A stretch of 63,140 bases of DNA, the filler included, from Asterionella formosa (Eukaryota): the NCBI GenBank assembly GCA_002256025.1. It is 10 parts of 10 records of this genome, joined end to end, with 100 filler letters (N's around TTAATTAATTAA, not from the genome) between each part and the next. Parts side by side here need not be neighbours in the genome. Positions count along the whole stretch, not along the records: positions 25,147 to 50,184 come from NKIB01002091.1; 9 more parts are not named here. One strand, written 5' to 3'. The translations under genes were made by a program, and so were the position numbers. This document shows positions 8,240-63,140 of the stretch, piece by piece. The notes under the pieces are model-generated. The model worked only from the letters and a program-made list of their open reading frames with translations, did no database searches and was not told the origin of the DNA. Within the stretch, counting starts at the first letter, position 1; each line of letters opens with the position of its first letter.

Positions 8240-8530
8240 ATTGTACCTGGTACCAAGTCCCCTGTACGCCGGAGTGAACCATGGTACCAGGTACCAGGTA
8301 CCTGCAAGTTGCGGTCATTGTGCTTAAATAAACAATATAATATGGGATAAAGATAGCTAAAGGTTTAGTCTCAGCAAAATTACCGAAACTTGCTGGTACC
8401 AGGTACCAACGTATTAGGTGATCCCCGATACGGGTACCTGGTACCTGGTACCATACTCGGAATACTGCACTAGTTCTCTACGTATAAAAATATGTAACGG
8501 TAGCGGTACTAATTTTATACCAGGTACCAC
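8240..8530. promoter_or_regulatory. (GGTACCW)n / TACCGGTA cluster in the divergent intergenic region (representative of many such clusters)
   Basis: ATGGTACCAGGTACCAGGTACC, GGTACCAGGTACC and GGGTACCTGGTACCTGGTACC lie between the head-to-head uL22m and TAZ genes. A regulatory role is inferred only. Confidence 0.45.
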
Positions 8531-32904: not shown

Positions 32905-33441
<537 letters not shown>

Positions 33442-39600: not shown

Positions 39601-42206
39601 AGCAAATATGACATGATACCGTCACACCACGATACATGAAAAATACGCCATCAAACAATGAGAAGAACACGAAACAATCTATTCGCTTGGTTTTGACTAA
39701 CTTCGAGAGTAAACAATAATTCAAAGATCATCTCAAGCACATCCCCAAGCATGAATTCTAACAAAACATTAGATCGTCTTTACATAAATGAAAGCAATCG
39801 TGACATATCAAGAGAACGGTCGTGTCTGGCTGGTGTAAATTTATAACACAAGATCGTCTTTGCATTGTTGAAGCCAATCATGTGATGCATCAAGAAAACG
39901 AGCGTGTTAGGTGTCAATTTGTATGCAATAATTTGACATCAAATGGTCAAGAGGCATGAAATCATGAAACAATGGGGGTCAAACACAAGGCCCTTGAAGC
40001 AATCATATTAACATTTCTAACACTAGTGCTGCTGCTAACCCTGACCCTGTCCCTCTTCCCTCCTCTTGCGTGGAATTTCTACACAGCAGAGCGAAATCAT
40101 GCTGATACTGGGGTGGGAAAAATGATCTTCTCTGCTCTATTGCTAACAGTCGGCAACCAGCCTGATCAAGTGCTGTTCTGACAGGTAATGTCCACTGTTT
40201 CCATGGGTGGATGCAATATTTGGGGCCACCGCCGGGTAGACCCTGTAGGCCTACTAATAGTATTAGCATAAACCCTAAACCTATGGTATATAATATTTTG
40301 CGCCTGGATTGGCATGTTATAATCACATCCACCATGTTGTTATTATTCTGTTGCTTTACTCAACAATAGAACATCCTCCCATGCCGCTTCAAATAGCTTT
40401 CTTTCCTTCATGAGTAGCGCTACTAGTATCAAACACTGTTGGGCATGGAGATTCACGCCTTCATGACCAATGGTTTCACATTCTTGAGCTTGATAGTGGG
40501 CAAGCTGGAGTTGAAACTGTACTGGAATGTCTCAAATAAGATCATACAGTAGTTGCAATGAAGATACAACAACGATTTCACACCCATCACTGTACAATGG
40601 ACTTTGATTTCATGTTTGTCATGAATGAATGCAACAACGTGGACAGCAAGAAGATTGTGGATGCATGTGTACATTAAATTTATTTATATTTATGTTATTT
40701 ATCTAGAACATTTCACTTAAGCTAAAATTATGTTATGCTGGTAGCCAGAATTATTTTGTACCGGTAGCAATGATGGCTCCCCAATTTAGTTTCATGGTGC
40801 ATCCAGCCATATTTAGCTTGTAGCACGCACGGATATACTAAATAACTGATAAACTCATATGTACACAAATGCTATTAATTCTAATTACTGGTAGTCTAAC
40901 ATATTGCTTACCACACCGAAAAAAACTCATGACTCAATTTCTTCCGAAAACTGTTCTTGGCCATTCCTTGCCATATCAGAAAGTTTTCTGGGTTGTGATT
41001 TCCCAAAACTCACAATAGATGATTTTCTTTTGAAACTTACCGTACCAGTAGGCCTGTTTGGGAAATTGATTTCACATCCAATGCACTAGAAAGAATAACA
41101 ATTATAATAGAATTTTAGGGCCTAAGATATTTCATAAGGTACCTGGTACCCAGGTCGGTGCCAGTATCTGGTACCTCCTGGCACCCCCCAGGAGCAAGGA
41201 GCTTGTACCAGGGTACAATAATGCCTTACCAGTTACCATCACCAAGTACCCGGTACTCCTCCCACCAAGAATAACAGACTAGAAAATACAACATGTGGTT
41301 AATAAACATGAATAGATTTCGAGAGCAATGGGTCTTCGCGTCCTTCAGACAAGTGTGCACCGCTATTCGGGAACCATTGTTAGTCGCGCAACGCACATAC
41401 TACCGGTAATTGAAAATATATAGCTAAGATACTGGTAGTCTGTTGTTGTATCACCAATTAGTGCCTCGTGACTGCATCATAGATACATGGGCACATGGTA
41501 TATACCAGCTACTAAATAATCGCCATATGTAGAGCGGCCCCTACGAACTCCCTGATGATTCTTGGGAGGTCCGGGAAAGGATATTATATTTTCTGTGCAT
41601 AAAGTCAGCAAAGTTTCTAATTTCCTGTACCATGGTACCGTACCTTGGTACCTACAGGTACCGGTACATTTATATTGATATCACTATCAGGTACTCGGAG
41701 TACAAGGTGAACCAGGTATGATATCCCGGTATCTTATGTAAATAATGGTGATGTGTGATTTGTAACGGTAATCTTGTTCGTGACAAAATTGCAATGTATC
41801 CAATCAGTTCCATTCCCGGTATCGAATATTTCGTAAGCGTGTACTAGATATATTTATAGGCATATGTAGAGTACCTCTATGTAATTAGTGCGAAACGGAT
41901 GATGGATACAACTACCGGTATAGTACCCACTCATAGTATCTTTAGCTGAAATTTTGTTGGAAACGGTCCAAGGTGCGGTCATTGCATATCGTATAATTAT
42001 CATTCATTTGATATCCTTCTCTGCCGCTGCGACAGGATTTTCCAAAACACGACCACGACCACCTTGAAACTCAAAGCACCACATTCATTGAACAAGTTTG
42101 GAGGTAAGCAGCATAAGCATGGCGTTCAAGGTACTACGAGCGTAACTCTGCGTGAACGTCGTTGGTGGATCTCAGCTGACACAAACATGCTTGCGCCTTT
42201 GAATAG

Positions 42207-45206
42207 ATGAAGGCATCTTACATTGCGATCGGCTTGATTGCGAGGTTCGCTGCTGTAGCAGCGGACCAGTGCGACAACCAGATGGCGGTTCTGCAAGCTG
42301 CTGTCGATTTGGGTACCAATTGTGATTCCACGAACCCTTCTGCAGACATTGCGGTTTGCTTGCAACCCTTGCCTCTGAGAGAAGGTGCGCAGCTGTATCA
42401 AGACTGCTGTGCCTGTAACCAGGTGAGCTGCGAACAAGTAGCCGCTGCTCTGTTCACGGAACAAGGGGGCTCTGTTGAGGGCATGTGTAATGCCATGATC
42501 GATGGATCGAACTGGTGCGTCACCCAACACAGCTTTGGACCGAAAACTCTAATGGATTGCTGCCCCGGCGCTTGCCAAGATCCTTGCGTGCTCTATGCAT
42601 CGCAGAAATTTGAGAGCCCCAGCGTGCACAAAATGTGTCTTGAAGTGGCATCGTCCAGTTTCAATAGCAAGGACCACTGTGGAGAAATGCTTCCTTCGTC
42701 CTTGACTGGCCGAACACTGGCTGAGTGTTGCCCAATTGCATGCCACGACACTTGCGAGAATTATGCGCGTGATCACTACTCCGACGGAACGATGGAATCC
42801 ATGTGCAATGATATTTTACAATCGGGTGGAAGTGATCACGAGTTGTGCAAACAGAGGATGGCCTCCAACAGTCCCATGGTTGGAAAAGATTGCTGTCCTG
42901 AAGCATGCAGCTCCCCTTGTGAGAAGTTTGCCCAAGAGCATTTTCAAAATCAAACTGTTCACCAAATGTGTCTTGACATTGAGGCTTATGGTGGATATAG
43001 ACACGGTGCTTGTGCAGAAAAGGTTGTCGGAGACGCTACTGTGGCCGAGGAGTGTTGCGTTGAATCTTGTGGCAGTCCTTGTGCTACCTACGCCCATGAC
43101 CATTTCGACGGACACTCGGTTGACGACATGTGCAGCGCCATTGCAACTGTTGGCCACGAACATGAAACTTGTAACGCTCAAATCGGAGATACCACTCAAA
43201 CAATTGGCAAGGACTGCTGCGTCGAAGCTTGCACGAGTCCTTGTGAAGCCTACGCTAAACAGAACTTTAACGGTGAAACAGTTCACGCTATGTGTCTGGA
43301 AATTGAAAATGCTGGTGGTTCCCATCACGAATCTTGTGCGGCACCGATTGGTGGATCGACACTATCGGCTGAGTGCTGCCCCATGGCTTGCCGAACTACG
43401 TGCGAGATTTTCGCATCCAACCACTTTCAAAAGAACAGCGTGGACGAAATGTGTCAGGTAATTGCAGACAATGGAGGGCACACCAATGATGTCTGCCAAC
43501 AAACAGCTGGAGTGCATACTCATATCCTTGGAAAGGATTGCTGTCCATCCCAGTGTCGTGACTCTTGTGAAAATTACGCTTTCAATAATTTCAACGGGGC
43601 CAGCGTTCATAGTATGTGTCTTGCGACCCAAGATGCTGCTCACGGTCAATGTGAGAATGATGTCGGCGATGGCAAGAAACTTAAGGATTGCTGCCCTGTT
43701 GGTTGCCGCGATGATTGCGAAAATCATGCGATTGATCATTTTGGAAAAAATTCCGTTGATGAAATGTGCGACGTGATTCAAAATAGCGGCGGAAGTGAGC
43801 ATGAATCTTGTGGCACACTTCAAGGGGCCAAGACTCCTACCTTGGGGTCTGATTGCTGCCCAATGGCCTGCCGCCCACCCTGCGAAGCTTATGCCAACGA
43901 GAACTTCGACAAGAAGAATATTGATGGTATGTGCAACGATATTCAATCCAATGGTGGCCATCAGCATGCGGCTTGTAAAGCTCAGGTCAAGGACTCGACT
44001 GTCGGGGAGCAGTGTTGCCGAGAAGCATGCGAACAGAGCCCTTGTGAAGCGTTTGCGGTTGATCGATTCCAAGTGGAGTCGGTTTCAGAAATGTGTGCAA
44101 GGATTGTAGACTCTGGTGGTTTTGAGAATGACGCATGCTCCGCAGACGTTGGCGAATTTAAAGTGCGTGAGGAGTGCTGTGTCGAGGCTTGTCGCACGCC
44201 TTGCGAAAAGTACGCATTTGAAAACTTCAATAGTGGCACCACAGTGGATGACATGTGCAATCAAATTGAAGGTGCAGGAGGATACCAGAGTGATCGCTGC
44301 TCGGCAGCTGTTGGGAATTCAACTGTGTCGGAAAAATGCTGCACTGCATCATGTCGTAAGCCATGCGAGAAGCATGCTTATGAATTCTTTGGAGGTTCCA
44401 CAGTTACTGATATGTGCATCGCCATTAAAGACAATGGCGGCCATGACAACAGTGCTTGCAATGACATGGTTGGATACGGGGATAATACTCAAATTGGCCA
44501 GACATGTTGCCCTGAGTCTTGTCGTACGGGCTGCGAGACGCACGCTTTCGAAAACTTTGGGGGCGCCAGTGTTGACGGCATGTGCCAAGCTATTCAAGAT
44601 GCGGGTGGCCACGAGAATGAGCATTGTACGCATGAAGTGGACGGTGTTGCGATAAGTACAAGTTGCTGTGTCAAAGCTTGCCGCAGTCCGTGCGAACAGT
44701 ATGCTTGGGATCACTTCGGCGACGTAGTGCCGGGAATGTGTTTTACTATTACAAAGATTGGTGGTTGGCAAGTGGATCATTGTTCAGCAGCAATCGGAAG
44801 TTCCACCTTGAACAAGGAATGCTGTGTTCAAGAGTGTTACAAGCCCTGTGAGAGTTATGGTTTCGAGCACTTCAACAATGCCGATGTCGATGAAATGTGT
44901 CTTAGCATCAAAAACTCTGGCGGACACGATAATATCGCCTGTGGAGATAACACTGTGAAACAAACATGTTGTGTTGATGCCTGTCGGGAGCCTTGTGAAG
45001 CCTACGCATTTGAGCGCTTTAATGGGGTTACTACTGACCAAATGTGCACAGAGATTAAGGAGGCTGGTGGTAGCTCGAATCCTGCCTGCAATGATAGTGT
45101 TGGCTCATCTACAGTTGGCGAAGCGTGCTGTCAGACTTGCGCTGAGGTTGAAGATTCCTGGCGTCGAAATCGACGTCTACGAAGTCGGGCGGGATCCTTT
45201 CTCTGA
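42207..45206 (+). CDS. Secreted Cys-rich protein with 17 tandem ~53-aa six-Cys repeats (paralog 1)
   Basis: 999-aa ORF with signal-peptide-like MKASYIAIGLIARFAAVAA and repeat CExYAxxxF-x4-VxxMC-xx-I-xxx-GG-x5-C-x9/13-CC-xxx-C. Ends RRNRRLRSRAGSFL. Probable 5' UTR intron (GTAAGC at 42104 to AG at 42206). Confidence 0.88.
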   Translation: MKASYIAIGLIARFAAVAADQCDNQMAVLQAAVDLGTNCDSTNPSADIAVCLQPLPLREGAQLYQDCCACNQVSCEQVAAALFTEQGGSVEGMCNAMIDGSNWCVTQHSFGPKTLMDCCPGACQDPCVLYASQKFESPSVHKMCLEVASSSFNSKDHCGEMLPSSLTGRTLAECCPIACHDTCENYARDHYSDGTMESMCNDILQSGGSDHELCKQRMASNSPMVGKDCCPEACSSPCEKFAQEHFQNQTVHQMCLDIEAYGGYRHGACAEKVVGDATVAEECCVESCGSPCATYAHDHFDGHSVDDMCSAIATVGHEHETCNAQIGDTTQTIGKDCCVEACTSPCEAYAKQNFNGETVHAMCLEIENAGGSHHESCAAPIGGSTLSAECCPMACRTTCEIFASNHFQKNSVDEMCQVIADNGGHTNDVCQQTAGVHTHILGKDCCPSQCRDSCENYAFNNFNGASVHSMCLATQDAAHGQCENDVGDGKKLKDCCPVGCRDDCENHAIDHFGKNSVDEMCDVIQNSGGSEHESCGTLQGAKTPTLGSDCCPMACRPPCEAYANENFDKKNIDGMCNDIQSNGGHQHAACKAQVKDSTVGEQCCREACEQSPCEAFAVDRFQVESVSEMCARIVDSGGFENDACSADVGEFKVREECCVEACRTPCEKYAFENFNSGTTVDDMCNQIEGAGGYQSDRCSAAVGNSTVSEKCCTASCRKPCEKHAYEFFGGSTVTDMCIAIKDNGGHDNSACNDMVGYGDNTQIGQTCCPESCRTGCETHAFENFGGASVDGMCQAIQDAGGHENEHCTHEVDGVAISTSCCVKACRSPCEQYAWDHFGDVVPGMCFTITKIGGWQVDHCSAAIGSSTLNKECCVQECYKPCESYGFEHFNNADVDEMCLSIKNSGGHDNIACGDNTVKQTCCVDACREPCEAYAFERFNGVTTDQMCTEIKEAGGSSNPACNDSVGSSTVGEACCQTCAEVEDSWRRNRRLRSRAGSFL

Positions 45207-46623
45207 TATCAATAAACCAATGGCACTCCCACCAAAGTTGAATCAAGAGATGAAATCGTAGAGTAGCGACAGTTTGGCATTATAGGTTAGACTATAGTTT
45301 TCGATCTTATACTACAAATAGTTTTACGTACAGGCATCGTTTGTGGTTTTGACGATTCAAGGCATTCATACTCGTTCCATTATTGCGCATGCAATAGCAA
45401 TGAAATTTGCGAGGAATTGGAAATTGTTCGTCTATGTATGGCTCTATTACTGCTTGGTTTTTCGATTTTGGATTGAATGTATTCCAACTGCAGCAGCTAC
45501 ATACTTGCCAATGCGCAGATACAAGCATAAAAAGGAGAGAGAAACTATGAACGCAACAACAGGATGTATTTAGGGACCTCGGCACCCCATTCAGCGCAAT
45601 GGATTGATATCATGAATGGACATTGGAGATGACAGTATTTCTACCTCAAGCGTATTCCTACACCTTATAGATCTAAGCTAAATTATTCAGCACCCTTGCA
45701 GTATGATGCGGACCTCTGTGTGTGTTGATCTAAGCGTTGTTCTGTACTTTGCTTCACGGATGAAAATGTTGGGATTAACTATCACTTCTCGTAATATCCT
45801 TGATAACATTTTCATATTGAAACTGATATTTTCAACAATGTTGCCATCAAGGAAGAATACCGGTACCAACATGGATTCAAAGGGTAATCAATCAGCAAGT
45901 ACAGTGTGCTTGAAATTCATAATAAAATCCCACCCGTCACATCGATGATGGTTGACTGGCATCGCGTTTGAGGACCTGTACCAAGCAAGTTGCTGTAATT
46001 TTGCAGAACTAAAGATTTAGCTTTTTTTATCCAAGATGAAACTGTTTCTTTGAGCAAAATGACCGCAACTTGTAGGTACCAGGTACCAGGTACCCAACAA
46101 TAAAGACACATCCTTGGCTGTTCTTACGTGCGTATTCATCGACTTTTAAAAGTAAAAATGTCTGTACCGCTATTTTATTTAGATTCTGGATGCATGTGTA
46201 CATTCTCATGTATAAAAACTGGTACCGGTACACAAAATGTATGGATGTTACCAGGTACTCCCTACCTGGTACCAGGGTACCAATTCAGATCTACTACTAC
46301 CGGTACATACAAGATTCATTCATTTATACTGTAAGAATAGCTGTCGTCCGGTGAAACAGTCATCGGCTGTTGCCTACATAGATACATATCATAAATACCG
46401 GCATACCACAGTCATAGTTTGGAATAATAGTTGGAGAAACTTGTTCACGAATTGCGAGGGACACACCTTCCATCAGACACATTTGTTGTTGGCAAACACA
46501 TATTGTTAGCGGCAAGATTCAACAATTTATTTCATGGTGCTTTTGATTCAGAAGGTATCCAATTGAATCTAACGTAGTCTACTGGTGTACCCTTCGTCCT
46601 GTTCAAACTTTGATAGATATAGA

Positions 46624-49600
46624 ATGAAGAAGCTTTCTATCGCGCTAGGCTTGATTGCAAACATCGCTGGCGCAGCAGCAAACCAATGTGAGAACCGGCT
46701 GGCAGTATTGAGAGCAGCAGTCGATTTAGGCACCAATTGTGATTCACTTGCGCCAAATCTAGATATTGCAAAGTGTCTTCAACCGTTGCCTCTGAGTGAT
46801 GCTGCGAAACTGTATCAAGACTGCTGCGCTTGTCCCCAGTTGACCTGCGAACAAGTAGCTGGAGCCATTTTCGCGGCCGAAGGAGGCACGGTTGACGCCA
46901 TGTGCAACGCCATGGTCGATGGATCCGACTGGTGTACGAACCAACGTAGTTTTGGACCCAAGACACTCATGGATTGTTGTCCTCAAGCATGCCAGGACCC
47001 TTGTGTGGTACATGCGACGACTAATTTTCAGGACCCCAGCGTGCACAAGATGTGTCTTCAAGTTGCCAGTGGCCATACCAAGGATTACTGTGGTCAATCC
47101 GTTGGGAACGGTGGTACACTGGCCGAGTGTTGCCCGGTTGCTTGCCGCGGAACTTGCGAAAATTATGCGCATGATCACTACGCCGAAGGGACGATTGAAG
47201 CCATGTGTGCTGATATTGAAAGGTCCGGTGGACACGAGCATGAGTTTTGTGGGAAGAGAGTTGCTTCCAACACGCACATGCTTGGAAAGGATTGCTGTCT
47301 GGAATCCTGCAGCAGCCCTTGTGAGAGGTATGCCAATGAGCATTTTCAAAATCAAACTGTTCACCAAATGTGTCTTGATATTGAAGAATATGGTGGATAC
47401 AGGCACAGTGCTTGTGCGGAAAAAGTTATTGGAGATGCTACTGTGGCCGAGGAATGTTGCATTGAATCTTGCAACAGTCCTTGTGTTAGCTACGCCATCG
47501 ACCATTTTAACGGAAAATCCGTTCAAGATATGTGTGGTGAAATAGCGAATGTTGGGCACGAACACGAAACTTGTAACGCTCAAATCGGGTTTAAGGCTAA
47601 TACTATTGGCAAGGACTGCTGCGTCGAAGCTTGCACGAGTCCTTGTGAAGCCTACGCTAAACAGAACTTTAACGGTGAAACAGTCCATAATATGTGTCTT
47701 GCCATTGACGGGGGTGGTGGCCACAATCATGTGGCTTGTGCTGCACCGATTGGTGGATCGACACTGTCGGCTGAGTGCTGCCCCATGGCTTGCCGAACTA
47801 CTTGCGAGATTTTCGCATCCAACCACTTTCAAAAGAACAGCGTGGACGAAATGTGTCAGGTAATTGCAGACAATGGAGGACACACCAACGAATTCTGTGC
47901 CGCAGCAGCTGGAGAACATACTCACATGCTTGGGAAGGATTGCTGTCCAGTACAGTGTAGGAATACTTGTGAGCATTATGCTTTTACCAATTTCGCAGGG
48001 GGTAGTGTTCATAAAATGTGCCTCGCCATTGAAGAAAACTCTAGTGAAACCTGTGAAGCAGATCTTGGAGACGGAAAACGTGGCAAAGACTGCTGCCCTA
48101 TTGCATGCCGCAACGCTTGTGAGAATCATGCGATAGATCATTTTGGAAAAAATTCCGTTGAAGAAATGTGCGACGAGATTCAAAATAGCGGCGGAAGTGA
48201 GCATGAATCTTGTGGCACACTTCAAGGGGCCAAGACTCCTACCTTGGGGTCTGATTGCTGCCCAATGGCCTGCCGCCCACCCTGCGAAGCTTATGCCAAC
48301 GAGAACTTCGACAATAAGAATGTTGATGGTATGTGCAACGATATTCAATCCAATGGTGGCCATCAGCATGCGGCTTGTAAAGCTCAGGTCAAGGACTCGA
48401 CTGTCGGGGAGCAGTGTTGCCGAGAAGCATGCGACCAGAGCCCTTGTGAAGCGTTTGCGGTTGATCGATTCCAAGTGGAGTCGGTTTCAGAAATGTGTGC
48501 AAGGATTGCAGACTCTGGTGGTTTTGAGAATGACGCATGCTCCGCAGACGTTGGCGAATTTAAAGTGCGTGAGGAGTGCTGTGTCGAGGCTTGTCGCACG
48601 CCTTGCGAAAAGTACGCATTCGAAAACTTCAACAGTGGCACAGTGGACGAATTGTGCAATCAAATTGAAGGTGCAGGAGGATACCAGAGTGATCGCTGCT
48701 CGGTAGTTGTTGGGAATTCAACTGTGTCGGAAAAATGCTGCATTGCATCATGTCGTAAACCATGCGAGAAGCATGCTTATGAATTCTTTGAAGGTTCCAC
48801 AGTTGCCGATATGTGTGCCGCCATAAAAAATAATGGAGGCCATGAAAACCTGGCTTGCAACGCCCTCGCTGCCGGTAATGTGAACGAAAAAGTCGGCGAA
48901 AAGTGTTGCCCTGAGTCTTGTCGTACTGGTTGCGAGACGCACGCTTTCGAAAACTTTGGAGGTGCCAGTGTTGATGGCATGTGCCAAGCTATTCAAGATG
49001 AAGGTGGCCACGAGAATGAGCATTGCATGCATGAAGTGGATGGTGTTGCTCTTGGACAAAGTTGCTGCGTGAATGCATGCAGCACTCCCTGCGAGCATTA
49101 TGCTCGTCAACACTTTGGTGGCGATTCCACACTAAGTGAAATGTGCGATATCATTGTAAAGATTGGTGGCTGGCAAGTGGATCACTGCTCGGCTGTAGTG
49201 GCCGAAGGACTTGCGTTCAACAAAGTATGCTGTGTTCATGAGTGCTTCAATCCATGTGAGAGTTATGCCTTCGATCATTATGCTAGTGCTGATGTTAATG
49301 ATATGTGCACTACAATTTCGAATGGCGGTGGTTATAAAAATAATGCTTGTTCTGCACAAGTTGGAAAAGATAATTTTCGTGATAAGTGTTGCATTGAGTC
49401 ATGTCACACTCCATGTGAGAAATATGCATCTGAGCAGTTCAATGGGGGGAAGGTTGAGACCATGTGCACCATCATTCAATATGGCCATGGCCATGACGAT
49501 GTGCACTGTGCTGGAATTGTGGAAGACTCAACTGTAGCTGCTACTTGTTGTGTTGAGCCATGTCGCTCACCCTGTGAAAAATATTCAATTGCACACTTCA

Positions 49601-49779
49601 ATGGGGCCACTGTTGCCCGCATGTGTTCGGAGATTAAAGAGGCTGGTGGTAACTCTAATCCTGCATGCAGTTCATTTGCTGGCACATCCACTGTAGGTGA
49701 TTCATGTTGTGTGGATGAATGCGCCCAGTTAGAGGATGCATCACGCTTCCGTAGACTTCGAAGGCACCATGTTGCTTAG
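46624..49779 (+). CDS. Secreted Cys-rich protein with 18 six-Cys repeats (paralog 2)
   Basis: ATG at 46624 gives MKKLSIALGLIANIAGAAA. Colinear with paralog 1 plus one extra repeat near the C-terminus. Ends SRFRRLRRHHVA. Confidence 0.88.
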   Translation: MKKLSIALGLIANIAGAAANQCENRLAVLRAAVDLGTNCDSLAPNLDIAKCLQPLPLSDAAKLYQDCCACPQLTCEQVAGAIFAAEGGTVDAMCNAMVDGSDWCTNQRSFGPKTLMDCCPQACQDPCVVHATTNFQDPSVHKMCLQVASGHTKDYCGQSVGNGGTLAECCPVACRGTCENYAHDHYAEGTIEAMCADIERSGGHEHEFCGKRVASNTHMLGKDCCLESCSSPCERYANEHFQNQTVHQMCLDIEEYGGYRHSACAEKVIGDATVAEECCIESCNSPCVSYAIDHFNGKSVQDMCGEIANVGHEHETCNAQIGFKANTIGKDCCVEACTSPCEAYAKQNFNGETVHNMCLAIDGGGGHNHVACAAPIGGSTLSAECCPMACRTTCEIFASNHFQKNSVDEMCQVIADNGGHTNEFCAAAAGEHTHMLGKDCCPVQCRNTCEHYAFTNFAGGSVHKMCLAIEENSSETCEADLGDGKRGKDCCPIACRNACENHAIDHFGKNSVEEMCDEIQNSGGSEHESCGTLQGAKTPTLGSDCCPMACRPPCEAYANENFDNKNVDGMCNDIQSNGGHQHAACKAQVKDSTVGEQCCREACDQSPCEAFAVDRFQVESVSEMCARIADSGGFENDACSADVGEFKVREECCVEACRTPCEKYAFENFNSGTVDELCNQIEGAGGYQSDRCSVVVGNSTVSEKCCIASCRKPCEKHAYEFFEGSTVADMCAAIKNNGGHENLACNALAAGNVNEKVGEKCCPESCRTGCETHAFENFGGASVDGMCQAIQDEGGHENEHCMHEVDGVALGQSCCVNACSTPCEHYARQHFGGDSTLSEMCDIIVKIGGWQVDHCSAVVAEGLAFNKVCCVHECFNPCESYAFDHYASADVNDMCTTISNGGGYKNNACSAQVGKDNFRDKCCIESCHTPCEKYASEQFNGGKVETMCTIIQYGHGHDDVHCAGIVEDSTVAATCCVEPCRSPCEKYSIAHFNGATVARMCSEIKEAGGNSNPACSSFAGTSTVGDSCCVDECAQLEDASRFRRLRRHHVA

Positions 49780-50284
49780 GCCATCAAGCATTCCGATTTA
49801 TTTTATGATGGCATTTCTCAGAAAAGGTAATTAATTTTTTTGGGGTACCTAGTTCTTCCTCTGGGTGTTCGCAGTTGTGGTGATTTGCAATGAATCCAGT
49901 GCTGAGCAGCTTTCATTTGGATGGTATACATAGATATAATTCATTTTTCTATGTGTGGGTTGCCTTACTCAAAGACATCCTTTTTTGAGTGACATAGATG
50001 TGAGTATAAACTCTCAGTTTCCAATTGAATTATTAGCATCAAAATACTGGTAGATTAGTTGAAATCAGTCGAACAAAATCGGCAAATACAATCAAAGTAT
50101 GCTTTATTGACAATTGATCCACATTGATCTATGTAAAGTTGCATTGGAGTCCCTAAATGGGCCCCAAGGGATTGATGAATGAGGNNNNNNNNNNNNNNNN
50201 NNNNNNNNNNNNNNNNNNNNNNNNNNNNTTAATTAATTAANNNNNNNNNNNNNNNNNNNNNNNNNNNNNNNNNNNNNNNNNNNN

Positions 50285-51908: not shown

Positions 51909-52791
51909 AATTAAGTCGTACGCAACGCCGGGTGTACCAGGAAAGACATTGAACAAGAATGACGGTGAAGTCATTATGGAAGGAGAATATCGAAAAATTG
52001 TGGGCAAGTTACTATGGTCTACAAAGAAGGATTCGCCGGACTGTGCGAATGCGGTTCGGGAACTATCGGCTCATTTAAGTTGCCCAGGTGAAGAACAATG
52101 GCATGCAGTGGCAAGAGTCATTGGTTACCTATCCAATATGGAGGATAGAGTTCTCAAGTTGCGTAAGCCAAAAGAGTTAAGAGTCATTGCCTACGTGGAC
52201 AGTGACTGGGCTGCTAATAAGGTTAACAGGAAGAGCACGACTGGCTATCTTGTTACTATTGGCGGGGCACTTATCAGTTGGCAGTCGAAGGGACAACAAA
52301 CGGTTACGCTGTCCAGTACGGAAGCCGAGTATGTGGCGATGTCCCAGTGTGGACAAGAGATCAAGTTTATAGCAATGCTACTGAATGAGGTTACTGGTGG
52401 AAAGGTCATGTTACCAAGTATCCTACGAGAAGACAATACAGGAGCTATTTTTATCGCGAAGAATCAGCAAATCGGAACCAGGACAAAACATATTGATATT
52501 AAGTATCATCATGTAAAGGACATGATTGAGGATGAAGAATTGGAAGTCATTTTTATAAGGTCGGAAGATAATTTTGCGGACATTATGACCAAGAACGTGA
52601 AGGAACAGATTCATACGAGATTGTCCGAACCAGTTCAGAGTGGAACGATGTTACAGCCTCTTGAGCGTGGCAATGGGGAGGATGTCAAGAATATTAGCCC
52701 GAGTCACAAGGATTGTGGACTCGATTGTAATCGAACGAGTCGAATATTGCATTGCCACGTCAATCAGCTGTCTAACGAGATCAGAGATTGA
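51909..52791 (+). mobile_element. Ty1/Copia reverse-transcriptase end and RNase H (partial)
   Basis: Motifs YRKIVGKLLW, YVDSDWA, RKSTTGY, TLSSTEAEY, EDNTGAI, RTKHIDIKYH and NFADIMTK. Confidence 0.92.
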
Positions 52792-53088
52792 AGATTTCTA
52801 TGGAAATGTTAAGTGGAAACTCGAAGAGAGTCTTAGAATGACTTTGCAGGAAGCAAAGATGCATGGAAAGGAAACATTTAGTTTAGCTTATAATTTAATT
52901 TGAGATTTAGATTATCAACCGAGGAAACAGTGTGTTAATTGACAGGAAGGTCAATTAGTCTATCTAGCAGGAAGGCTAGAAGCAGAGACAAGAGAGAAAG
53001 TGAGTGGTACTAGGTAGTACTACGATCACGTAAGAGTCTACGTGAAGAGAGACCCAACCCGCGGGAAGGAGTACGGACCATTTCAACA
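52683..53088 (+). mobile_element. Copia 3' LTR (right end uncertain: 52944 or 53088)
   Basis: Polypurine tract GGGGAGGA is followed by TGTCAAG. Candidate ends are TTGACA (52944) and TTTCAACA (53088), after which GGTACC-rich host-type sequence begins. Confidence 0.55.
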
Positions 53089-53909
53089 TTAGAATACCTA
53101 CCGGTAGACCTACGTGCCGATACTCTACATATTCCTTATTCATATGTACCGGTAGTATCATAATTTTATGCACGGTAGACTGTTACGTACTTCCTTCATC
53201 GATGGTACCAGGTACCAGGTACCTGGTACCAGGTACCAGGTATGAAGGAAACCCCGGGAGGCCATCGTTCAATTTCTTCTTTACCTGGTAGATTACCATG
53301 TACCAGGTACCAGGTACCATCTATTTTTATGTCAAGTCGCCATGATGTGAGTGAGGATTGATAGCTATACCGGTATTCCTCAAATGAGCGACCCGCAACG
53401 AAAACACGGAAGGATCAAGCATTCGATNNNNNNNNNNNNNNNNNNNNNNNNNNNNNNNNNNNNNNNNNNNNTTAATTAATTAANNNNNNNNNNNNNNNNN
53501 NNNNNNNNNNNNNNNNNNNNNNNNNNNTGTGAACTGAATTACAGAATTAATTGAAGTATTTCAAATAATTATGTGAAGTATTTCAAATAATTATGTGAAG
53601 GTGATCACGTAATATAGTGATGATCAGGAATGCATGCATGATACTCTGATCAAAAAATGAACATGATGTATTCAGATAATATATAGATATATTCAAGTAA
53701 GCATTTTGATGTATTCAACTAATTCATGTGATCCATTCAAAATCAACTAGGCTTATTTACGTGATGGTCACTTCACGTAATACGCGGCTTAGATGTGGCC
53801 ACACTGGATGCACATGTAACATTTTCTCGGGTGTTGGCTGGTACAATATCCACAGTAGGTAGCTGATCATCATTGATCATACGCATACCAGTATGATCAG
53901 GCACTTTGC

Positions 53910-55046
53910 TTACCAGTACATGGAATGGACAGAGTGCGCTGCTTTTCCTTTGATGTTTATTGCGGCCACAATGATTGCAGACATTTGTTCCTTTCCTCCT
54001 TGTTTCCTGATGTTCCCTTCTGAGCGCAACACCAGAACTGTAAGTCTTACCTGATTTTTTATCTTGCCTTTCCTGTTTGACTGTTTCAAATTGTGCTGCA
54101 TGTATTTTTCGCTTCTTTTCCTCTTTCGTTTGAATTGTGCTTTATATGCTCCATCGTCACTTCGTCGCTTTTCTTTTTGTCTCCAGAAGGATTCTTGCAG
54201 TGCTGACATCTGCATTCCACATTGCTTGCATACATTCCTTGTGTATTGTGTTGCTCCTTGTGTGTGTTGCCTAGCAACCGAAGCCACTCGATATTGAAGG
54301 CCTCCAGATCCCGCAAACACCTTGTTTTTTGGACATCGTCGCGACACTGCATTGTTCACTGCCTCATTAATCTGCGTGTCAAAGGGATGTTGCCATGATA
54401 GTAACTTTTCGCCTTCAACTTTCGTTGCAACATGCAGCATTAACCATTCGTATAAATCTTTTTCCTTTTCCTTGTTATGATATTTTCCGTTACTAAACAT
54501 TTTTCCTGCTTTTACAGGGCACCATGTCTCTGAGCAGTAACCGTGGCAGCCAAATAAATGGTTGATTGGTGCCTTGGAGGAAATACTGAATTCGGCCAGA
54601 GAGAGGTTCCGTTTTTTTAATCCAAGCGCCATAGTAAACTTTCAACCGGAGACAATCTGCTTTTGAGGGATGCAAAAGGGAGACCAAGCCATTGGATTTC
54701 ATAAAAGCTGGGTAGAGAAGAAGGACCCGTACTCTGTGGGATGGGTCAGACAGAAATGTAGGTTCGGGTACAGTCAGTGGAAGGCATCCTTTGTCCGATT
54801 TGTTTAATCCTTTCAATGTTCTTGTCCATTGGAAGGATGGCTGTAGTTTCAATAACTCCTTTTAGGACCACTTAGAAACAGCTCGAATAGTAGAATCATC
54901 ATCACAGATGATTGTAGAGTAGATAACATTGTTTTTCATTACTGCATCAATCATCATTTCTACACCAGCATCTGGTTCCATTGCTTTCGAACTACCAGTT
55001 ACATGATTCTTGGGACAAACATGTTCCTTGATTGGTTTCTTGTACC
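53910..55046 (-). pseudogene. Frameshifted Mutator-like transposase
   Basis: Across shifted frames: SSKAMEPDAG, IICDDDSTIRA, FLSDPSHRVR, HLFGCHGYCSETWC and TQINEAVNNAVSRRCPKNK. Confidence 0.6.
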
Positions 55047-55146
55047 NNNNNNNNNNNNNNNNNNNNNNNNNNNNNNNNNNNNNNNNNNNNTTAATTAATT
55101 AANNNNNNNNNNNNNNNNNNNNNNNNNNNNNNNNNNNNNNNNNNNN

Positions 55147-56665
55147 GAGCGGAGAATGCTCAAATGTTAAATACACTTGAAGAAAACAAAACATTTTACA
55201 CTGAACGTCAATTTCAGAGAGCTAAGCGAGCTCGTGATCTATTTCATGCCTTGGGTACACCATCAATTAATGATTTCAAGGCAATAATTCGTATGAATAC
55301 GATCAACAATAATCCAGTGACTACCGATGATATCAAAATTGCAGAGAAAATTTTTGGACCTGACATCGGAACACTAAAAGGCAAGACAACTCGTCGCAAG
55401 CCGCTGCCAGTCGTGAACGACTACATCGAGATTCCTAAGGAGCTTATCCAAGCTCAACGTGAAGTGACTCTTTGCATGGATGGAATGAAAGTCAATGGAC
55501 AATCATTTCTCACAACAATTTCTCGAAACATTATGTATAGGACAGCGCAATGGGTCAAGAATCAGACAGCTGAAGTCTATCGAGATGCTTTGATTCAAGT
55601 ATTCCGTGTTTATAATACCGGAGGATTTAAAATTACAACAATCCACTGTGACAACGAGTTTCGACCTTTGATGGAACAAATTTCCAATGAATTTCAAGTC
55701 ACTATGAACTACGCAAACCCACAAGAACATGTTCCCGAAGCGGAGCGAAATAATCGAGTGATTAAAGAACGCGTGCGCGCAGCTTATCATCGATTACCTT
55801 TCAAACATTTGCCGCGACTGATGATTAAGATTCTAGTGACAGAATCTGCAAGGAAACTGAATTTCTTTCCGGCAAAGAACGGGATATCCCCGTATTACAG
55901 TCCTCGTATGATTTTACATCAACGAAACCTGGACTATGCTCGACATTGCCAGTATACATTTGGCACTTATGTCCAAGCACATGAAGAACCTGTGTTTTCA
56001 AACACAAATGCACCTCGCAGCCTAGATTGCATTTTTCTACGCTACAATGACAATGTGCAAGGAGGTCATGAATTGTTACACCTACCTACAAATTCATTGA
56101 TCACTAGACGAACAATTACTCCTCTACCACTTACCCCAGCAATCATGAATCAAGTACACGCCCTTGCTGTGCAGGAAAATATGCCAGATGGTCTCAAGAT
56201 AGCAAATCGAACGGGGCAACTATTTTATGATAGTGCTTGGATTGCAGGAGTGGATTATGATAATGAAGCATTTGAAGATGCACAAGATGAAGATTATGAA
56301 GATCAAGATGCTAGTGACGACGAAAGCAATGATGAAATTCTCGGAGAAGAAGACTATGATGAAATGACTCCAGATGAAATATATGAAGCAGAACAGCTCG
56401 AATTAAACGACAATACTCAAGAGGATGACCCTGAACCTGACGAGGGCAACAATGAGAATATTATTGAAATGAATGCAGATGATATCCAAGATGAGGATGA
56501 AGAGCCAGCAAATGAAACTGAAAACGAAGAGGCAAGAATGTTAGAAGTCAATCCAAGCACTCAGGATGACTCAGACCCAAATGTTAGAACTACAAGGTCT
56601 GGAAGAGTCTCAAGACCACCATCAAAACTAACTATGGTCCAAAATCATTTGCATACCCAAGCACA
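55147..56665 (+). mobile_element. Copia-type (diatom CoDi-like) integrase fragment, copy 1
   Basis: HHCC-region remnant LFHALGTPS, DDE core (LCMDGM, IHCDNEF, HVPEAERNNRVIKER), acidic linker and TRSGRVSRPP. Confidence 0.85.
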
Positions 56666-56765
56666 NNNNNNNNNNNNNNNNNNNNNNNNNNNNNNNNNNN
56701 NNNNNNNNNTTAATTAATTAANNNNNNNNNNNNNNNNNNNNNNNNNNNNNNNNNNNNNNNNNNNN

Positions 56766-58284
56766 TGTGCTTGGGTATGCAAATGATTTTGGACCATAGT
56801 TAGTTTTGATGGTGGTCTTGAGACTCTTCCAGACCTTGTAGTTCTAACATTTGGGTCTGAGTCATCCTGAGTGCTTGGATTGACTTCTAACATTCTTGCC
56901 TCTTCATTTTCAGTTTCATTTGCTGGCTCTTCATCCTCATCTTGGATATCATCTGCATTCATTTCAATATTATTCTCATTGTTGCCCTCGTCAGGTTCAG
57001 GGTCATCCTCTTGAGTATTGTCGTTTAATTCGAGCTGTTCTGCTTCATATATTTCATCCGGAGTCATTTCATCATAGTCTTCTTCTCCGAGAATTTCATC
57101 ATTGCTTTCGTTGTCACTAGCATCTTGATCTTCATAATCTTCATCTTGTGCATCTTCAAATGCTTCATTATCATAATCCACTCCTGCAATCCAAGCACTA
57201 TCATAAAATAGTTGTCCCGTTCGATTTGCTATTTTGAGACCATCTGGCATATTTTCCTGCACAGCAAGGGCGTGTACTTGATTCATGATTGCTGGGGTAA
57301 GTGGTAGAGGAGTAATTGTTCGTCTAGTGATCAATGAATTTGTAGGTAGGTGTAACAATTCATGACCTCCTTGCACATTGTCATTGTAGCGTAGAAAAAT
57401 GCAATCTAGGCTGCGAGGTGCATTTGTGTTTGAAAACACAGGTTCTTCATGTGCTTGGACATAAGTGCCAAATGTATACTGGCAATGTCGAGCATAGTCC
57501 AGGTTTCGTTGATGTAAAATCATACGAGGACTGTAATACGGGGATATCCCGTTCTTTGCCGGAAAGAAATTCAGTTTCCTTGCAGATTCTGTCACTAGAA
57601 TCTTAATCATCAGTCGCGGCAAATGTTTGAAAGGTAATCGATGATAAGCTGCGCGCACGCGTTCTTTAATCACTCGATTATTTCGCTCCGCTTCGGGAAC
57701 ATGTTCTTGTGGGTTTGCGTAGTTCATAGTGACTTGAAATTCATTGGAAATTTGTTCCATCAAAGGTCGAAACTCGTTGTCACAGTGGATTGTTGTAATT
57801 TTAAATCCTCCGGTATTATAAACACGGAATACTTGAATCAAAGCATCTCGATAGACTTCAGCTGTCTGATTCTTGACCCATTGCGCTGTCCTATACATAA
57901 TGTTTCGAGAAATTGTTGTGAGAAATGATTGTCCATTGACTTTCATTCCATCCATGCAAAGAGTCACTTCACGTTGAGCTTGGATAAGCTCCTTAGGAAT
58001 CTCGATGTAGTCGTTCACGACTGGCAGCGGCTTGCGACGAGTTGTCTTGCCTTTTAGTGTTCCGATGTCAGGTCCAAAAATTTTCTCTGCAATTTTGATA
58101 TCATCGGTAGTCACTGGATTATTGTTGATCGTATTCATACGAATTATTGCCTTGAAATCATTAATTGATGGTGTACCCAAGGCATGAAATAGATCACGAG
58201 CTCGCTTAGCTCTCTGAAATTGACGTTCAGTGTAAAATGTTTTGTTTTCTTCAAGTGTATTTAACATTTGAGCATTCTCCGCTC
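56766..58284 (-). mobile_element. Copia-type integrase fragment, copy 2
   Basis: Reverse complement of copy 1 with the same ends and a few SNPs. Confidence 0.85.
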
Positions 58285-58384
58285 NNNNNNNNNNNNNNNN
58301 NNNNNNNNNNNNNNNNNNNNNNNNNNNNTTAATTAATTAANNNNNNNNNNNNNNNNNNNNNNNNNNNNNNNNNNNNNNNNNNNN

Positions 58385-59903
58385 TGTGCTTGGGTATGCA
58401 AATGATTTTGGACCATAGTTAGTTTTGATGGTGGTCTTGAGACTCTTCCAGACCTTGTAGTTCTAACATTTGGGTCTGAGTCATCCTGAGTGCTTGGATT
58501 GACTTCTAACATTCTTGCCTCTTCATTTTCAGTTTCATTTGCTGGCTCTTCATCCTCATCTTGGATATCATCTGCATTCATTTCAATATTATTCTCATTT
58601 TTGCCCTCGTCGGGTTCAGGGTCATCCTCTTGAGTATTGTCGTTTAATTCGAGCTGTTCTGCTTCATATATTTCATCCGGAGTCATTTCATCATAGTCTT
58701 CTTCTCCGAGAATTTCATCATTGCTTTCGTTGTCACTAGCATCTTGATCTTCATAATCTTCATCTTGTGCATCTTCAAATGCTTCATTATCATAATCCAC
58801 TCCTGCAATCCAAGCACTATCATAAAATAGTTGTCCCGTTCGATTTGCTATCTTGAGACCATCTGGCATATTTTCCTGCACAGCAAGGGCGTGTACTTGA
58901 TTCATGATTGCTGGGGTAAGTGGTAGAGGAGTAATTGTTTGTCTAGTGATCAATGAATTTGTAGGTAGGTGTAACAATTCATGACCTCCTTGCACATTGT
59001 CATTGTAGCGTAGAAAAATGCAATCTAGGCTGCGTGGTGCATTTGTGTTTGAAAACACAGGTTCTTCATGTGCTTGGACATAAGTGCCAAATGTATACTG
59101 GCAATGTCGAGCATAGTCCAGGTTTCGTTGATGTAAAATCATACGAGGACTGTAATACGGGGATATCCCGTTCTTTGCCGGAAAGAAATTCAGTTTCCTT
59201 GCAGATTCTGTCACTAGAATCTTAATCATCAGTCGCGGCAAATGTTTGAAAGGTAATCGATGATAAGCTGCGCGCACGCGTTCTTTAATCACTCGATTAT
59301 TTCGCTCCGCTTCGGGAACATGTTCTTGTGGGTTTGCGTAGTTCATAGTGACTTGAAATTCATTGGAAATTTGTTCCATCAAAGGTCGAAACTCGTTGTC
59401 ACAGTGGATTGTTGTAATTTTAAATCCTCCGGTATTATAAACACGGAATACTTGAATCAAAGCATCTCGATAGACTTCAGCTGTCTGATTCTTGACCCAT
59501 TGCGCTGTCCTATACATAATGTTTCGAGAAATTGTTGTGAGAAATGATTGTCCATTGACTTTCATTCCATCCATGCAAAGAGTCACTTCACGTTGAGCTT
59601 GGATAAGCTCCTTAGGAATCTAGATGTAGTCGTTCACGACTGGCAGCGGCTTGCGACGAGTTGTCTTGCCTTTTAGTGTTCCGATGTCAGGTCCAAAAAT
59701 TTTCTCTGCAATTTTGATATCATCGGTAGTCACTGGATTATTGTTGATCGTATTCATACGAATTATTGCCTTGAAATCATTAATTGATGGTGTACCCAAG
59801 GCATGAAATAGATCACGAGCTCGCTTAGCTCTCTGAAATTGACGTTCAGTGTAAAATGTTTTGTTTTCTTCAAGTGTATTTAACATTTGAGCATTCTCCG
59901 CTC
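58385..59903 (-). mobile_element. Copia-type integrase fragment, copy 3 (nonsense allele)
   Basis: Same ends as copies 1 and 2; a GAG-to-TAG change at 59620-59622 splits the ORF. Confidence 0.85.
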
Positions 59904-61330: not shown

Positions 61331-61624
61331 CTTGGTACCTACATATACTGGCAAAGGTGTATTATGATTGGCCAAAACACGCTTTTCGTTCGTTTGCTTC
61401 GAGGCAAAGTATACATTCTGATCATAAGCGCCATTCCACCTAGTATGTGCAGGTACTGACTGTGCGCAAGAACCATTAAAAACCGCCAGTAAGATGCTGA
61501 GATGAATTTTTTAGCCACACAGNNNNNNNNNNNNNNNNNNNNNNNNNNNNNNNNNNNNNNNNNNNNTTAATTAATTAANNNNNNNNNNNNNNNNNNNNNN
61601 NNNNNNNNNNNNNNNNNNNNNNAA

Positions 61625-63140
61625 TCAAGAAAGATGGAGATTAAGGCTATTTTGGATGGTGTGGTTGCAAGAAAGGTTGCTGAATACATTTCCGATAATG
61701 AAGGCAAAATACAAGTTTGTATGAAGGTTGCCAGTGTGACTGCTATTGTAAATGTAATGCCAGACGTTGTACTGGAAAGTACAAAGTCGTCAATCTGTTC
61801 TTACCCTGTGCAAATTATGAAGTCCCCTCTTCTGAGTGAGAATCCAGCCGACATTTCGCCAGCGAAAGTATTCAAGCTTCAATGGCTGCCGACTGTCTCA
61901 CTGCATCCCTACTATGCACCTGGAGACGGATTGGTACCTCAAGTGATCTCGAAAGCAAGCTCTGTTTCTGTTGCTCCGAAAGTCTATAGGGGGTCATCTT
62001 ATGATAGTCCTATGCATACTGATTACTGGGTGGATTACAGGCCAGCCAAGGAATGCCACATGCGACGAGATGATTTATTGTTCCTACATTGCTACTTTCC
62101 TAGCAAATCATGGAAATCAAGAAAGATGGAGATTAAGGCTCTGCTGGATGGTGTGGTTGCAAGAAAGGCTGCTCAATACATTTCCGACAATGAAGACAGA
62201 ATGCAAGTTTGTATGGAAGATGACAGTGTGAATGCTATTGTTAAAGCAATGTCAGAACTTGTACTGGAAAGTACAAAGTCGTCAATCTGTTTTTACCCTG
62301 TGCAATTTATGAAGTCCCCTCGTCTGAGTGTAAATGTAATGCCAGACGTTGTACTGGAAAGTACAAAGTCGTCAATCTGTTTTTACCCTGTGCAATTTAT
62401 GAAGTCCCCTCGTCTGAGTGAGAATCCAGCCGACATTTCGCCAGCGAAAGTATTCAAGCTTCAATGGCTGCCGACTGTCTCACTGCATCCCTACTATGCA
62501 CCTGGAGACGGAATGGTATCTCAAGTGATCTCGAAAGCAAGCTCTGTTTCTGTTGCTCCAAAAGTCTATAGGGGGTCATCTTATGATAGTCCTATGCATA
62601 CTGATTACTGGGTGGATTACAGGCCAGCCAAGGAATGCCACATGCGACAAGATGATTTATTGTTCCTACATTGCTACTTTCCTAGCAAATCATGGAAATC
62701 AAGAAAGATGGAGATTACGGCTCTGCTGGATGGTGTGGTTGCAAGAAAGGCTGCTCAATACATTTCCGACAATGAAGACAGAATGCAAGTTTGTATGGAA
62801 GATGACAGTGTGAATGCTATTGTTAAAGCAATGTCAGAACTTGTACTGGAAAGTACAAAGTCGTCAATCTGTTCTTACCCTGTGCAATTTATGAAGTCCC
62901 CTCGTCTGAGTGAGAATCCAGCCGACATTTCGCCAGCGAAAGTATTCAAGCTTCAATGGCTGCCGACTGTCTCACTGCATCCCTACTATGCACCTGGAGA
63001 CGGATTGGTACCTCAAGTGAACTCGAAAGCAAGCTCTGTTTCTGTTGCTCCAAAAGTCTATAGGGGGTCATCTTATGATAGTCCTATGCATACTGATTAC
63101 TGGGTGGATTACAGGCCAGCCAAGGAATGCCACATGCGAC
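61625..63140 (+). CDS. Open-ended ORF of ~164-aa tandem repeats (missed by the ORF track)
   Basis: The frame of ATG 61634 has no stop to the window end (~500 codons). Unit starts are at 61634, 62126 and 62708 (492 and 582 bp, both multiples of 3). Coding status is not proven. Confidence 0.55.

Follow-up and report, generated by a model that had tools for sequence, protein, structure and literature searches.

A tandem pair of lake-diatom genes encodes putatively secreted chains of a six-cysteine module without recognized family

Most of what is known about the proteins of diatom walls and adhesives comes from a small number of marine model species. Among them, the frustulins coat the wall and are described as carrying multiple Ca-binding, acidic, Cys-rich domains of ≈50 aa (PMC4557024), in which the hexapeptides CQGDCD and VPGCSG recur as ACR domain motifs (PMC4712521). 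The pleuralins, also secreted wall proteins, are reported to have tandem acidic Cys-rich PSCD domains (PMC4557024). Proteins of diatom adhesive trails contain six-Cys repeats that cannot be assigned to a named domain; one of these, the CaTrailin3 repeat, is reported to occur also in several further diatoms and in some fungi (10.1101/2023.03.06.531300). Silicanin-1, finally, is described as a type I membrane protein with an N-terminal RXL motif and an NQ-rich domain holding 18 Cys residues (PMC5525289).

Here we describe two genes, A and B, in a window of 63,140 nucleotides of joined Asterionella formosa sequence (assembly GCA_002256025.1, filler included); all features given below lie on the plus strand. 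The host is a diatom, since its genome holds silicon transporters (seven matches, the best at 575 bits), although a multi-copy silicon transporter is no araphid marker because multi-SITs are reported across all diatom classes (PMC6114903). Gene A (42207..45206) is an intronless ORF of 999 aa and gene B (46624..49779) an intronless ORF of 1051 aa. Neither has an internal stop, and their products are 70–73% identical, in agreement with the tandem pair of ≈1000-aa proteins proposed in the initial annotation. RNA contigs cover the ORFs in all four runs examined (X1, X5, X6, and X9), with contigs specific to B in X1 and X6 and parts of B in X5 and X9, so that the transcript support on which that annotation had made its reading depend exists for both genes. 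Positions 41307–41613 and 45605–45911 have no contig cover in the four runs. Contig depth over A far exceeds that of B-specific contigs in X1, X5, and X9 and is similar in X6, although contigs cannot rank the genes. Runs X12–X20, whose shares were small, were kept out of any inference on habitat. A 103-nt 5′-UTR intron of gene A (42104..42206; GTAAGC...TTGAATAG) abuts the ATG; it is read from its GT..AG ends and from a 103-nt skip in a contig of X9, a run presumed to be RNA, with a shorter flank of 29 letters. The fit of an X1 contig to the gene A locus begins at 42205. The assembly holds only these two genes. Contig C13586 is 100% identical to window positions 45848–50184, and the assembly is thus redundant here; a third gene copy was ruled out, as C13586 and C7505 fit a second haplotype. 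A and B are paralogous tandem copies of a diatom gene whose distribution is lineage-restricted.

The pattern C-x15..18-C-x9..14-C-x8..16-CC-x2..3-C occurs 17 times in A and 18 times in B; 2000 shuffles of each ORF give 0.29 and 0.32 occurrences on average and never more than 3, which substantiates the annotated number of six-Cys repeats. Cys spacing and module alignment delimit repeat modules 1–17 of A (42423..45143; typically C-x16-C-x13-C-x12..14-CC-x3-C) and 1–18 of B (46840..49725), with a CC-to-CC period of 49–56 aa in both. All six Cys are invariant when the 35 modules are aligned, and conservation is at least 90% at A7, F11, and M19. Three residues link successive modules, four at one junction. 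Module 16 of A is short and resembles a fusion of two modules; it looks like the leftover of a one-module deletion. Ahead of the repeats lies a cap, module 0 (42264..42419 in A, 46681..46836 in B), with six Cys spaced 16-11-15-0-1 and 55–71% identity among A, B, and the related protein P0005. The initial annotation had recognized this cap as Cys-containing and missed that it follows the six-Cys layout of the repeats. The cap scores only 0.5–3.4 bits against the repeat profile, and the Cys spacing, the one basis for the comparison, suggests a divergent module. A search for the cap among shorter proteins found it in none of 48 candidates. With the cap included, every Cys falls in a module (108, or 18 × 6, in A; 114, or 19 × 6, in B).

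Cys makes up 10.8% of residues, Asp plus Glu ≈14%, and His 3.8% in A and 4.4% in B, with pI values of 4.6 and 4.9; of the richness in His, Asp, and Glu noted at the outset, the acidity is evident and the His enrichment only moderate. Pro stands at ≈3% and Trp at 1–4 per chain. The most hydrophobic stretch of A and B is the N terminus, where a hydropathy heuristic marks residues 1–19 as signal-peptide-like (42207..42263 in A, 46624..46680 in B); it also finds a hydrophobic N terminus in P0024. Past residue 30, the hydropathy of 19-mers never exceeds 0.93 in A or 1.11 in B, and there is no TM helix. By this heuristic, the signal-peptide-like start and the lack of a TM segment that had been annotated are both borne out.

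The repeat had originally been left without a family, and our searches agree. A module profile of the kind that had been proposed, searched against 1.84 billion proteins, found few relatives. Pfam returned no family at E ≤ 1 for either ORF, NCBIfam and PHROGs gave one match for four chains (E 0.22, 9.4 bits versus a cut-off of 1100), the PDB sequence search gave no match, and the ESM Atlas offered nothing usable for A or for residues 580–745 of P0005. Six scattered Pfam families, each matching one or two of the 35 modules (E 0.006–0.19), were rejected as noise. No paper describing this six-Cys repeat was found in the literature searched, which took in only a minority of subscription journals.

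The ShK domain (PF01549) shares with the A/B module six Cys crowded toward the C-terminal end, and ShK-like domains are in tandem elsewhere in this genome. The loose likeness to ShK suggested earlier is not supported, however. The A/B module has ≈53 positions, a CC-x3-C ending, and no W..GEC core, whereas ShK has 31–37 positions and C-x3-C-x2-C, a spacing that is absent from A, B, P0005, P0023, and P0085. The ShK profile matches none of the 35 modules at E ≤ 10; of the 22 places in the genome that it does match, 17 exceed the cut-off and none is at the A/B locus, and hhalign against ten of the genome's own ShK domains gives a probability of 1.9% with one column aligned. The PLAC domain (PF08686), which ends in CC-x2-C, is also a six-Cys domain with C-terminal crowding, and its profile matches no module and nothing in the genome at E ≤ 1. 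EGF-like repeats, already judged a poor fit, were rejected: no EGF family is among the Pfam matches, and the EGF-like fold is a beta-hairpin, whereas the module model is helical.

That model consists of five short helices and a two-residue bridge (pLDDT 93.5, pTM 0.72; five models 89.6–93.5). One module is thus predicted to be a compact, mostly helical domain, as the initial annotation had supposed. A three-module model has a pTM of 0.56 and pLDDT of 61–83, with its five models disagreeing on packing, and does not bear out the beads-on-a-string array proposed initially; a two-copy prediction for residues 20–345 of A, with a score of 0.00, is uninformative on self-association either way. The proposed Foldseek check gave no match at E ≤ 0.001 in the PDB or a viral library, VIA-align over 48,161 chains reached at best a Z of 3.0 (3v0u_A; rmsd 2.9, 38 aligned), and a further VIA-align set matched 0 of 11 chains, blanks that do not prove a new fold. 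No ShK-type chain is among the matches listed by these fold searches, in which small domains are easily missed.

The module profile recovered only two long relatives and one fragment, and a separate search one further partial relative; orthologues are 50–59% identical. P0026 and P0027 (E 2e-5) were dropped: both are repeat proteins of bacterial type that contain Cys but lack the six-Cys pattern. Of the pattern matches in metagenome scans, 0 of 203 and 0 of 22 were confirmed, and of those in a viral scan, 0 of 87. Because the profile found no relatives in the proteins of other diatoms, a general wall component is excluded. For modules 0–13, the best match is the same-numbered module of P0005 in 14 of 14 cases for A and in 14 of 14 for B. 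The module order, which the initial annotation had overlooked, is thus fixed across lineages, though modules within A are on average only 37% identical and identities between modules span 23–52%. Such an order points to a defined shape or to contacts specific to each position, not to a featureless spacer. Six-Cys units number 18 in A, 19 in B and P0005, and probably 16 in P0085, with the variation near the C terminus.

Between A and B, dN is 0.16 and dS 0.61 (dN/dS 0.26), and the pair is under purifying selection. No Cys is changed in any of the 14 full-length A-cluster members compared, and among the environmental A-type proteins, 12 of 14 depart from the A sequence at only 5–8 of 999 residues. 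The dS between the genes is 0.9–1.8 in modules 0–3 and 0.00 in modules 10 and 11 (43875..44195 in A), where no synonymous difference from B occurs; the middle of the pair is gene-converted.

Both chains end on a basic site of RXL type, overlooked in the initial annotation: R-N-R-R-L-R in A (residues 987–992; 45165..45182) and R-F-R-R-L-R in B (residues 1041–1046; 49744..49761). The form R-x-R-[RG]-L-R closes all five chains checked and is the only RxL past the signal region in four of them. RxLR ends none of six neighboring control proteins; a bare RxL lies within the last 20 residues of two of six unrelated neighbors and is therefore a weak signal. The five family members have the RxL-type end in common by descent. 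By its sequence, this end resembles the RXL site at which diatom wall proteins are processed, a motif described in frustulins, cingulins, and silacidins (PMC4557024). As reported, RXL usually lies just past the signal peptide or between repeats (PMC5525289, PMC4557024), positions at which A and B have none, and the frustule-localized Tp12162 is described as having it after residue 410 of 415 (PMC9650480).

We propose, with about even confidence, that A and B encode a secreted, acidic, disulfide-stapled scaffold of the cell surface or wall that works like a frustulin without being one. The product would enter the ER via its signal peptide, and each module of 50–55 residues would fold as its own small helical domain closed by three disulfides, a number suggested by the Cys count and by the way both chains start and finish with complete sets of six Cys. 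By analogy with diatom RXL precedent, the short basic tail would probably be clipped, leaving 18–19 modules on three-residue links with a net charge of about −75 to −82. The location and function we infer follow from what the chain lacks (enzyme domain, membrane anchor, retention signal): most likely it is extracellular and serves the organic wall coat or mucilage as a structural or scaffold protein that resists proteases. Cation bridging would hold it in place, and though it would work as frustulins do, its module would be unrelated to theirs. A bolder form of this proposal, which we consider doubtful, is that the module is a small disulfide-stapled helical fold with no counterpart among solved structures and that 16–19 non-interchangeable modules in a fixed series make a defined rod. 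In freshwater planktonic diatoms, this rod would be the chief protein of an extracellular structure specific to the lineage, for example the mucilage pads that join cells in colonies. If true, it would offer a first molecular way into how non-gliding diatoms link up in colonies.

It is unlikely, in our estimate, that the chains are instead multivalent recognition or defence proteins whose modules, in the intact chain or after release, bind or inhibit a protease or a ligand of parasite, bacterial, or self origin. Binding is often the role of small, secreted helical modules rich in disulfides, and here the modules are diverse yet conserved by position, in a narrowly distributed family whose module number varies near the C terminus. 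Selection is purifying rather than diversifying, however, the environmental A-type proteins are nearly unchanged, and the assembly has two genes only; the absence of RxL between modules and their three-residue links argue against a peptide polyprotein. A surface metal-binding protein, in which clustered His and acidic residues would capture or sequester Zn, Cu, Cd, Fe, or Ca, strikes us as quite unlikely. Cadmium chelation is reported for frustulins (PMC4557024). Of the His residues of A, 21 of 38 are invariant in A, B, P0005, and P0023, His clusters at four module positions, and from B to P0005 His is retained at 23 of 31 sites versus 165 of 314 for other polar residues (p = 0.016). From A to P0005, in contrast, the comparison is weaker (20/31 versus 157/317, p = 0.079); no His, Asp, or Glu is invariant across modules, several modules have no His, and at two of the favored positions, which come after Gly-Gly turns, His may have a structural role. 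Very doubtful is a role in the lumen of the silica deposition vesicle, where the protein would help to shape a lineage-specific frustule feature: its signal peptide, acidity, abundant Cys, and RXL-type site are reminiscent of the lumenal, disulfide-bonded part of silicanin-1 (PMC5525289), but there is no TM helix and no RXL past the signal peptide, the silaffin/cingulin-like K-[SG]-[SG]-K is absent from all five chains, and KxxK occurs at most twice per chain. An artefact (noncoding repeat, pseudogene, or assembly duplication), to which the redundancy with C13586 might point, is refuted by the intact 3-kb frames, RNA cover, spliced 5′ UTR, dN/dS ratio, orthologues, and the ≈27–30% of residues that differ between A and B, with C13586 and C7505 accounted for as above.

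If the scaffold that we favor is found in the wall coat or colony-linking mucilage, it would represent an independent, frustulin-like solution in diatom surface biology. The locus provides an expressed, constrained, and putatively secreted lake-diatom protein whose module had no counterpart among the families and solved folds searched. Because the 53-aa module is confidently predicted and directly expressible, its structure, disulfides, and ion binding are cheaply testable.

Like frustulins as they are described, A and B are secreted (by the hydropathy heuristic), have several acidic Cys-rich modules of ≈50 aa, and contain RXL motifs, which occur in frustulin precursors. Unlike them, A and B are made of 18–19 abutting modules with a CC doublet, and the A/B family is found in few lineages only, whereas frustulins are reported as general among diatoms. 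C[EQ]GDC, GDCD, and DCD are absent from all five chains, and VPGC, Pro-rich or poly-Gly linkers, and a Trp-rich domain are absent from A and B. We therefore rejected frustulin membership, although the ER signal peptide is, by the heuristic, a shared feature. Pleuralin membership fails on period, Pro content, and the lack of a PDB sequence match; the PSCD domain is described as ≈90 aa and rich in Pro, Ser, Cys, and Asp, behind an N-terminal Pro-rich region, whereas A and B have the shorter period and low Pro content given above. Silicanin-1 as described shares a signal peptide, an RXL motif, and a Cys-rich part, which in that protein is folded and lumenal (PMC5525289), and differs from A and B in its TM helix, in the position of RXL, which is C-terminal here, and in lacking their repeat build. 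Compared by description only, CaTrailin3 and the DUF1/DUF2 repeats of Craspedostauros australis are, as in A and B, tandem, six-Cys, and secreted. The trail proteins are reported to bear CAA or PTS-rich domains as well (10.1101/2023.03.06.531300), whereas modules fill the whole mature chain of A and B, with no Pfam match to the CAA domain and without the stretches rich in Pro, Thr, and Ser that typify diatom adhesives (PTS 13–16%). Nor does the A/B module profile have a set of relatives as wide as that reported for the CaTrailin3 repeat. Overall, the kind of protein, a secreted chain of tandem Cys-rich modules, is familiar; what is new is the fixed order of its modules across lineages, together with the conserved R-x-R-[RG]-L-R end.

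Two tandem open reading frames, A (42207–45206, + strand, 999 aa) and B (46624–49779, + strand, 1051 aa), run without internal stops and encode arrays of a ~53-aa six-cysteine module. The six-cysteine pattern occurs 17 times in A and 18 times in B, as against three or fewer occurrences in 2000 shuffles of each protein, which bears out the tandem arrays described in the initial annotation. The cysteine totals of 108 in A and 114 in B divide exactly into 18 and 19 six-cysteine sets, with a usual module spacing of C-x16-C-x13-C-x12..14-CC-x3-C followed by a three-residue link. Across the 35-repeat alignment the six cysteines are invariant, and A7, F11, and M19 are almost invariant. The first set, described earlier as a cysteine-containing cap, has its six cysteines spaced 16-11-15-0-1, but its score against the repeat profile is as low as 0.5–3.4 bits. 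Both chains are acidic, with a pI of 4.6 and a net charge of −82 for A and a pI of 4.9 and a net charge of −75 for B. By a hydropathy heuristic, the N-termini are signal-peptide-like and no membrane helix or anchor is seen beyond residue 30, in agreement with the earlier description.

Structure prediction of a single module from the 35-row alignment gave a confident model (pLDDT 93.5, pTM 0.72, five of five models in agreement) made up mostly of predicted helices, at residues 2–10, 16–25, 32–35, 43–46, and 49–52, plus a tiny bridge, consistent with the helical module proposed earlier. The three-module prediction reached a pLDDT of 82.8 and a pTM of 0.56, with models ranging from 61 to 83. Fold searches returned no match (best Z 3.0), which does not in itself prove a new fold. 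The loose resemblance to ShK-type modules suggested in the initial annotation is not supported by the sequence comparisons: none of the genome's 22 ShK-like domain matches, 17 of them over the cut-off, falls at the A/B locus, and hhalign comparison of the module profile with ten aligned ShK domains of the same genome gave a probability of 1.9%. PLAC likewise gave no match. Elsewhere in the genome, four ShK-like domains share one 558-aa frame at locus L020 (G000:C6124), and further tandem ShK proteins are found on C3398, C3235, C9665, and C4978.

Database relatives are few. The clusters recovered with phmmer number three: one of 18 A-like members, one with a single B-like member, and that of P0005 with six. 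The 35-module profile, run against 1.84 billion representatives, returned five matches at E ≤ 0.001 (P0004, P0005, a 52-aa fragment, and two others), two of which were dropped as unrelated. One more relative, P0085, 51–54% identical to the others, emerged when this profile was used in a word-based search. None of these relatives carries an informative name, and our literature search found no description of the A/B repeat. Judged from these sequence searches, the family is narrowly distributed at the sensitivity used, and its module appears not to have been catalogued.

The host genome comprises 68 Mb in 15,436 contigs, several of which are joined by N linkers to make up the window. A and B are carried by C2091 (window 25147–50184), where genes for an ornithine decarboxylase and for COG2 precede them. 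The ornithine-decarboxylase-like protein (27986–30085, + strand, 664 aa) is ~200 aa longer than solved relatives and has long acidic insertions. Apart from a stop-containing row at E 0.08, which was ignored, searches of the same genome picked up nothing beyond A, B, and contig C13586. The latter matches window 45848–50184 at 100% identity and shares an overlap with C7505, in which the A–B spacer recurs at 96.8% identity; we read the two contigs as a second haplotype of the locus rather than a third gene. Because B ends 405 bases short of the contig end, further copies could conceivably lie beyond it. Between A and B (45974–46100) lies a MITE-like dispersed repeat of ~120 bp. Its inverted ends are long (DNA fold z −4.35), a second copy is at 8283–8404, and dozens of copies, 82–89% identical, came from the 40 candidates scored out of 944. 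A long poly-G/poly-C tract with a few N at ~33050–33250 is possibly a sequencing or assembly artefact. Other features of the window include a gene for a U-box, VWA, Vwaint, and Vint (Hint) protein (4222–6496, − strand), with 730-aa full-length forms in its cluster, and short contigs with copia-type retroelement fragments (51909–59574). These fragments comprise an RNase H-like piece identified by reading and integrase/SH3-like pieces with weak Pfam matches, and two of the contigs are near-identical in opposite orientation. An open frame of >500 codons at 61623–63139 (+ strand), composed of long near-identical repeats, continues past the window end. The genome also yields seven silicon-transporter matches (best 575 bits), on which grounds we take the host to be a diatom; at L006 (G000:C15220), silicon transporter domains lie head-to-tail in one 824-aa open frame, resembling the multi-SIT genes described in PMC6114903.

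Sequence from this stretch is present in part in 20 public runs of 17 studies, and at least a fifth of its words are present in 11 runs, nine of them lake or freshwater metatranscriptomes. Transcript support comes from contigs on A in all four runs examined (only part of A in run X6) and from B-specific contigs along most of B in X1 and X6; as these are assembled contigs, expression levels cannot be ranked. Bins 41307–41613 and 45605–45911 have no contigs in any of the four. A contig of X9, a run classed as RNA by guess, skips a 103-nt GT..AG intron ending just 5′ of the ATG of A, its shorter side being 29 letters.

A and B are 70–73% identical (dN 0.16, dS 0.61), with dS by module of 0.9–1.8 in modules 0–3 and 0.00 in modules 10–11; the zero value suggests that gene conversion has taken place there recently and in register. 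Two members of the A cluster, P0008 and P0018 (61 and 34 differences from A, respectively), have B-type middle modules and are either A/B recombinants or assembly chimeras. Every cysteine is retained in the 14 full-length members of the A cluster that entered the comparison (drawn from 15 of its 18 members, one truncated sequence being left out). The orthologue P0005 has 19 modules, is 56–59% identical, and is colinear with both chains: for modules 0–13 its best match is the same-numbered module in 14 of 14 cases for A and 14 of 14 for B, at 50–79%, whereas modules within A average 37% identity to one another. The array is thus old and frozen and is not undergoing homogenisation along its length. 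Beyond module 13 colinearity is weaker and module number varies, A being one module short and the partial P0085 consistent with a 16-module chain. The feature is real and expressed, and it is under constraint.

We give about an even chance to A and B being structural or scaffold proteins of the wall coat or mucilage. The chain would be secreted, its basic C-terminal tail would be trimmed off, and the remaining acidic chain of predicted disulfide-stapled helical modules would serve the coat or mucilage in a frustulin-like manner. R-x-R-[RG]-L-R lies within ~15 residues of the C-terminus in all five chains checked (A, B, P0005, P0023, and P0085), which share the site by descent, and is the sole RxL past the signal region in four; among six unrelated neighbours, a bare RxL occurs near the C-terminus in two and RxLR in none. 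PMC4557024 and PMC5525289 describe RXL as a motif at which the precursors of diatom wall proteins are processed, and PMC9650480 describes a frustule-localised protein whose RXL lies five residues before the end. That A and B act as binders in recognition or defence seems to us unlikely. Somewhat less probable again is a metal-binding surface protein, to which the histidines lend slight support. Of the 38 histidines of A, 21 are invariant in four full chains, clustered at four module positions; in one comparison histidines were retained more often than the remaining polar residues (p 0.016), but not clearly so in a second (p 0.079). A protein of the silica vesicle is the least probable of these.

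The structural or scaffold role proposed here does not make A and B frustulins, an identity that we reject: PMC4712521 lists for frustulins ACR hexapeptides, linkers of Pro or Gly, and a domain rich in Trp, none of which occurs in either protein. Among published proteins with unassigned six-cysteine repeats, CaTrailin3 (10.1101/2023.03.06.531300) comes closest; the comparison is one of published description, which qualifies the novelty of the module. The function of A and B is one that we infer; their protein type is already familiar from diatom surfaces.
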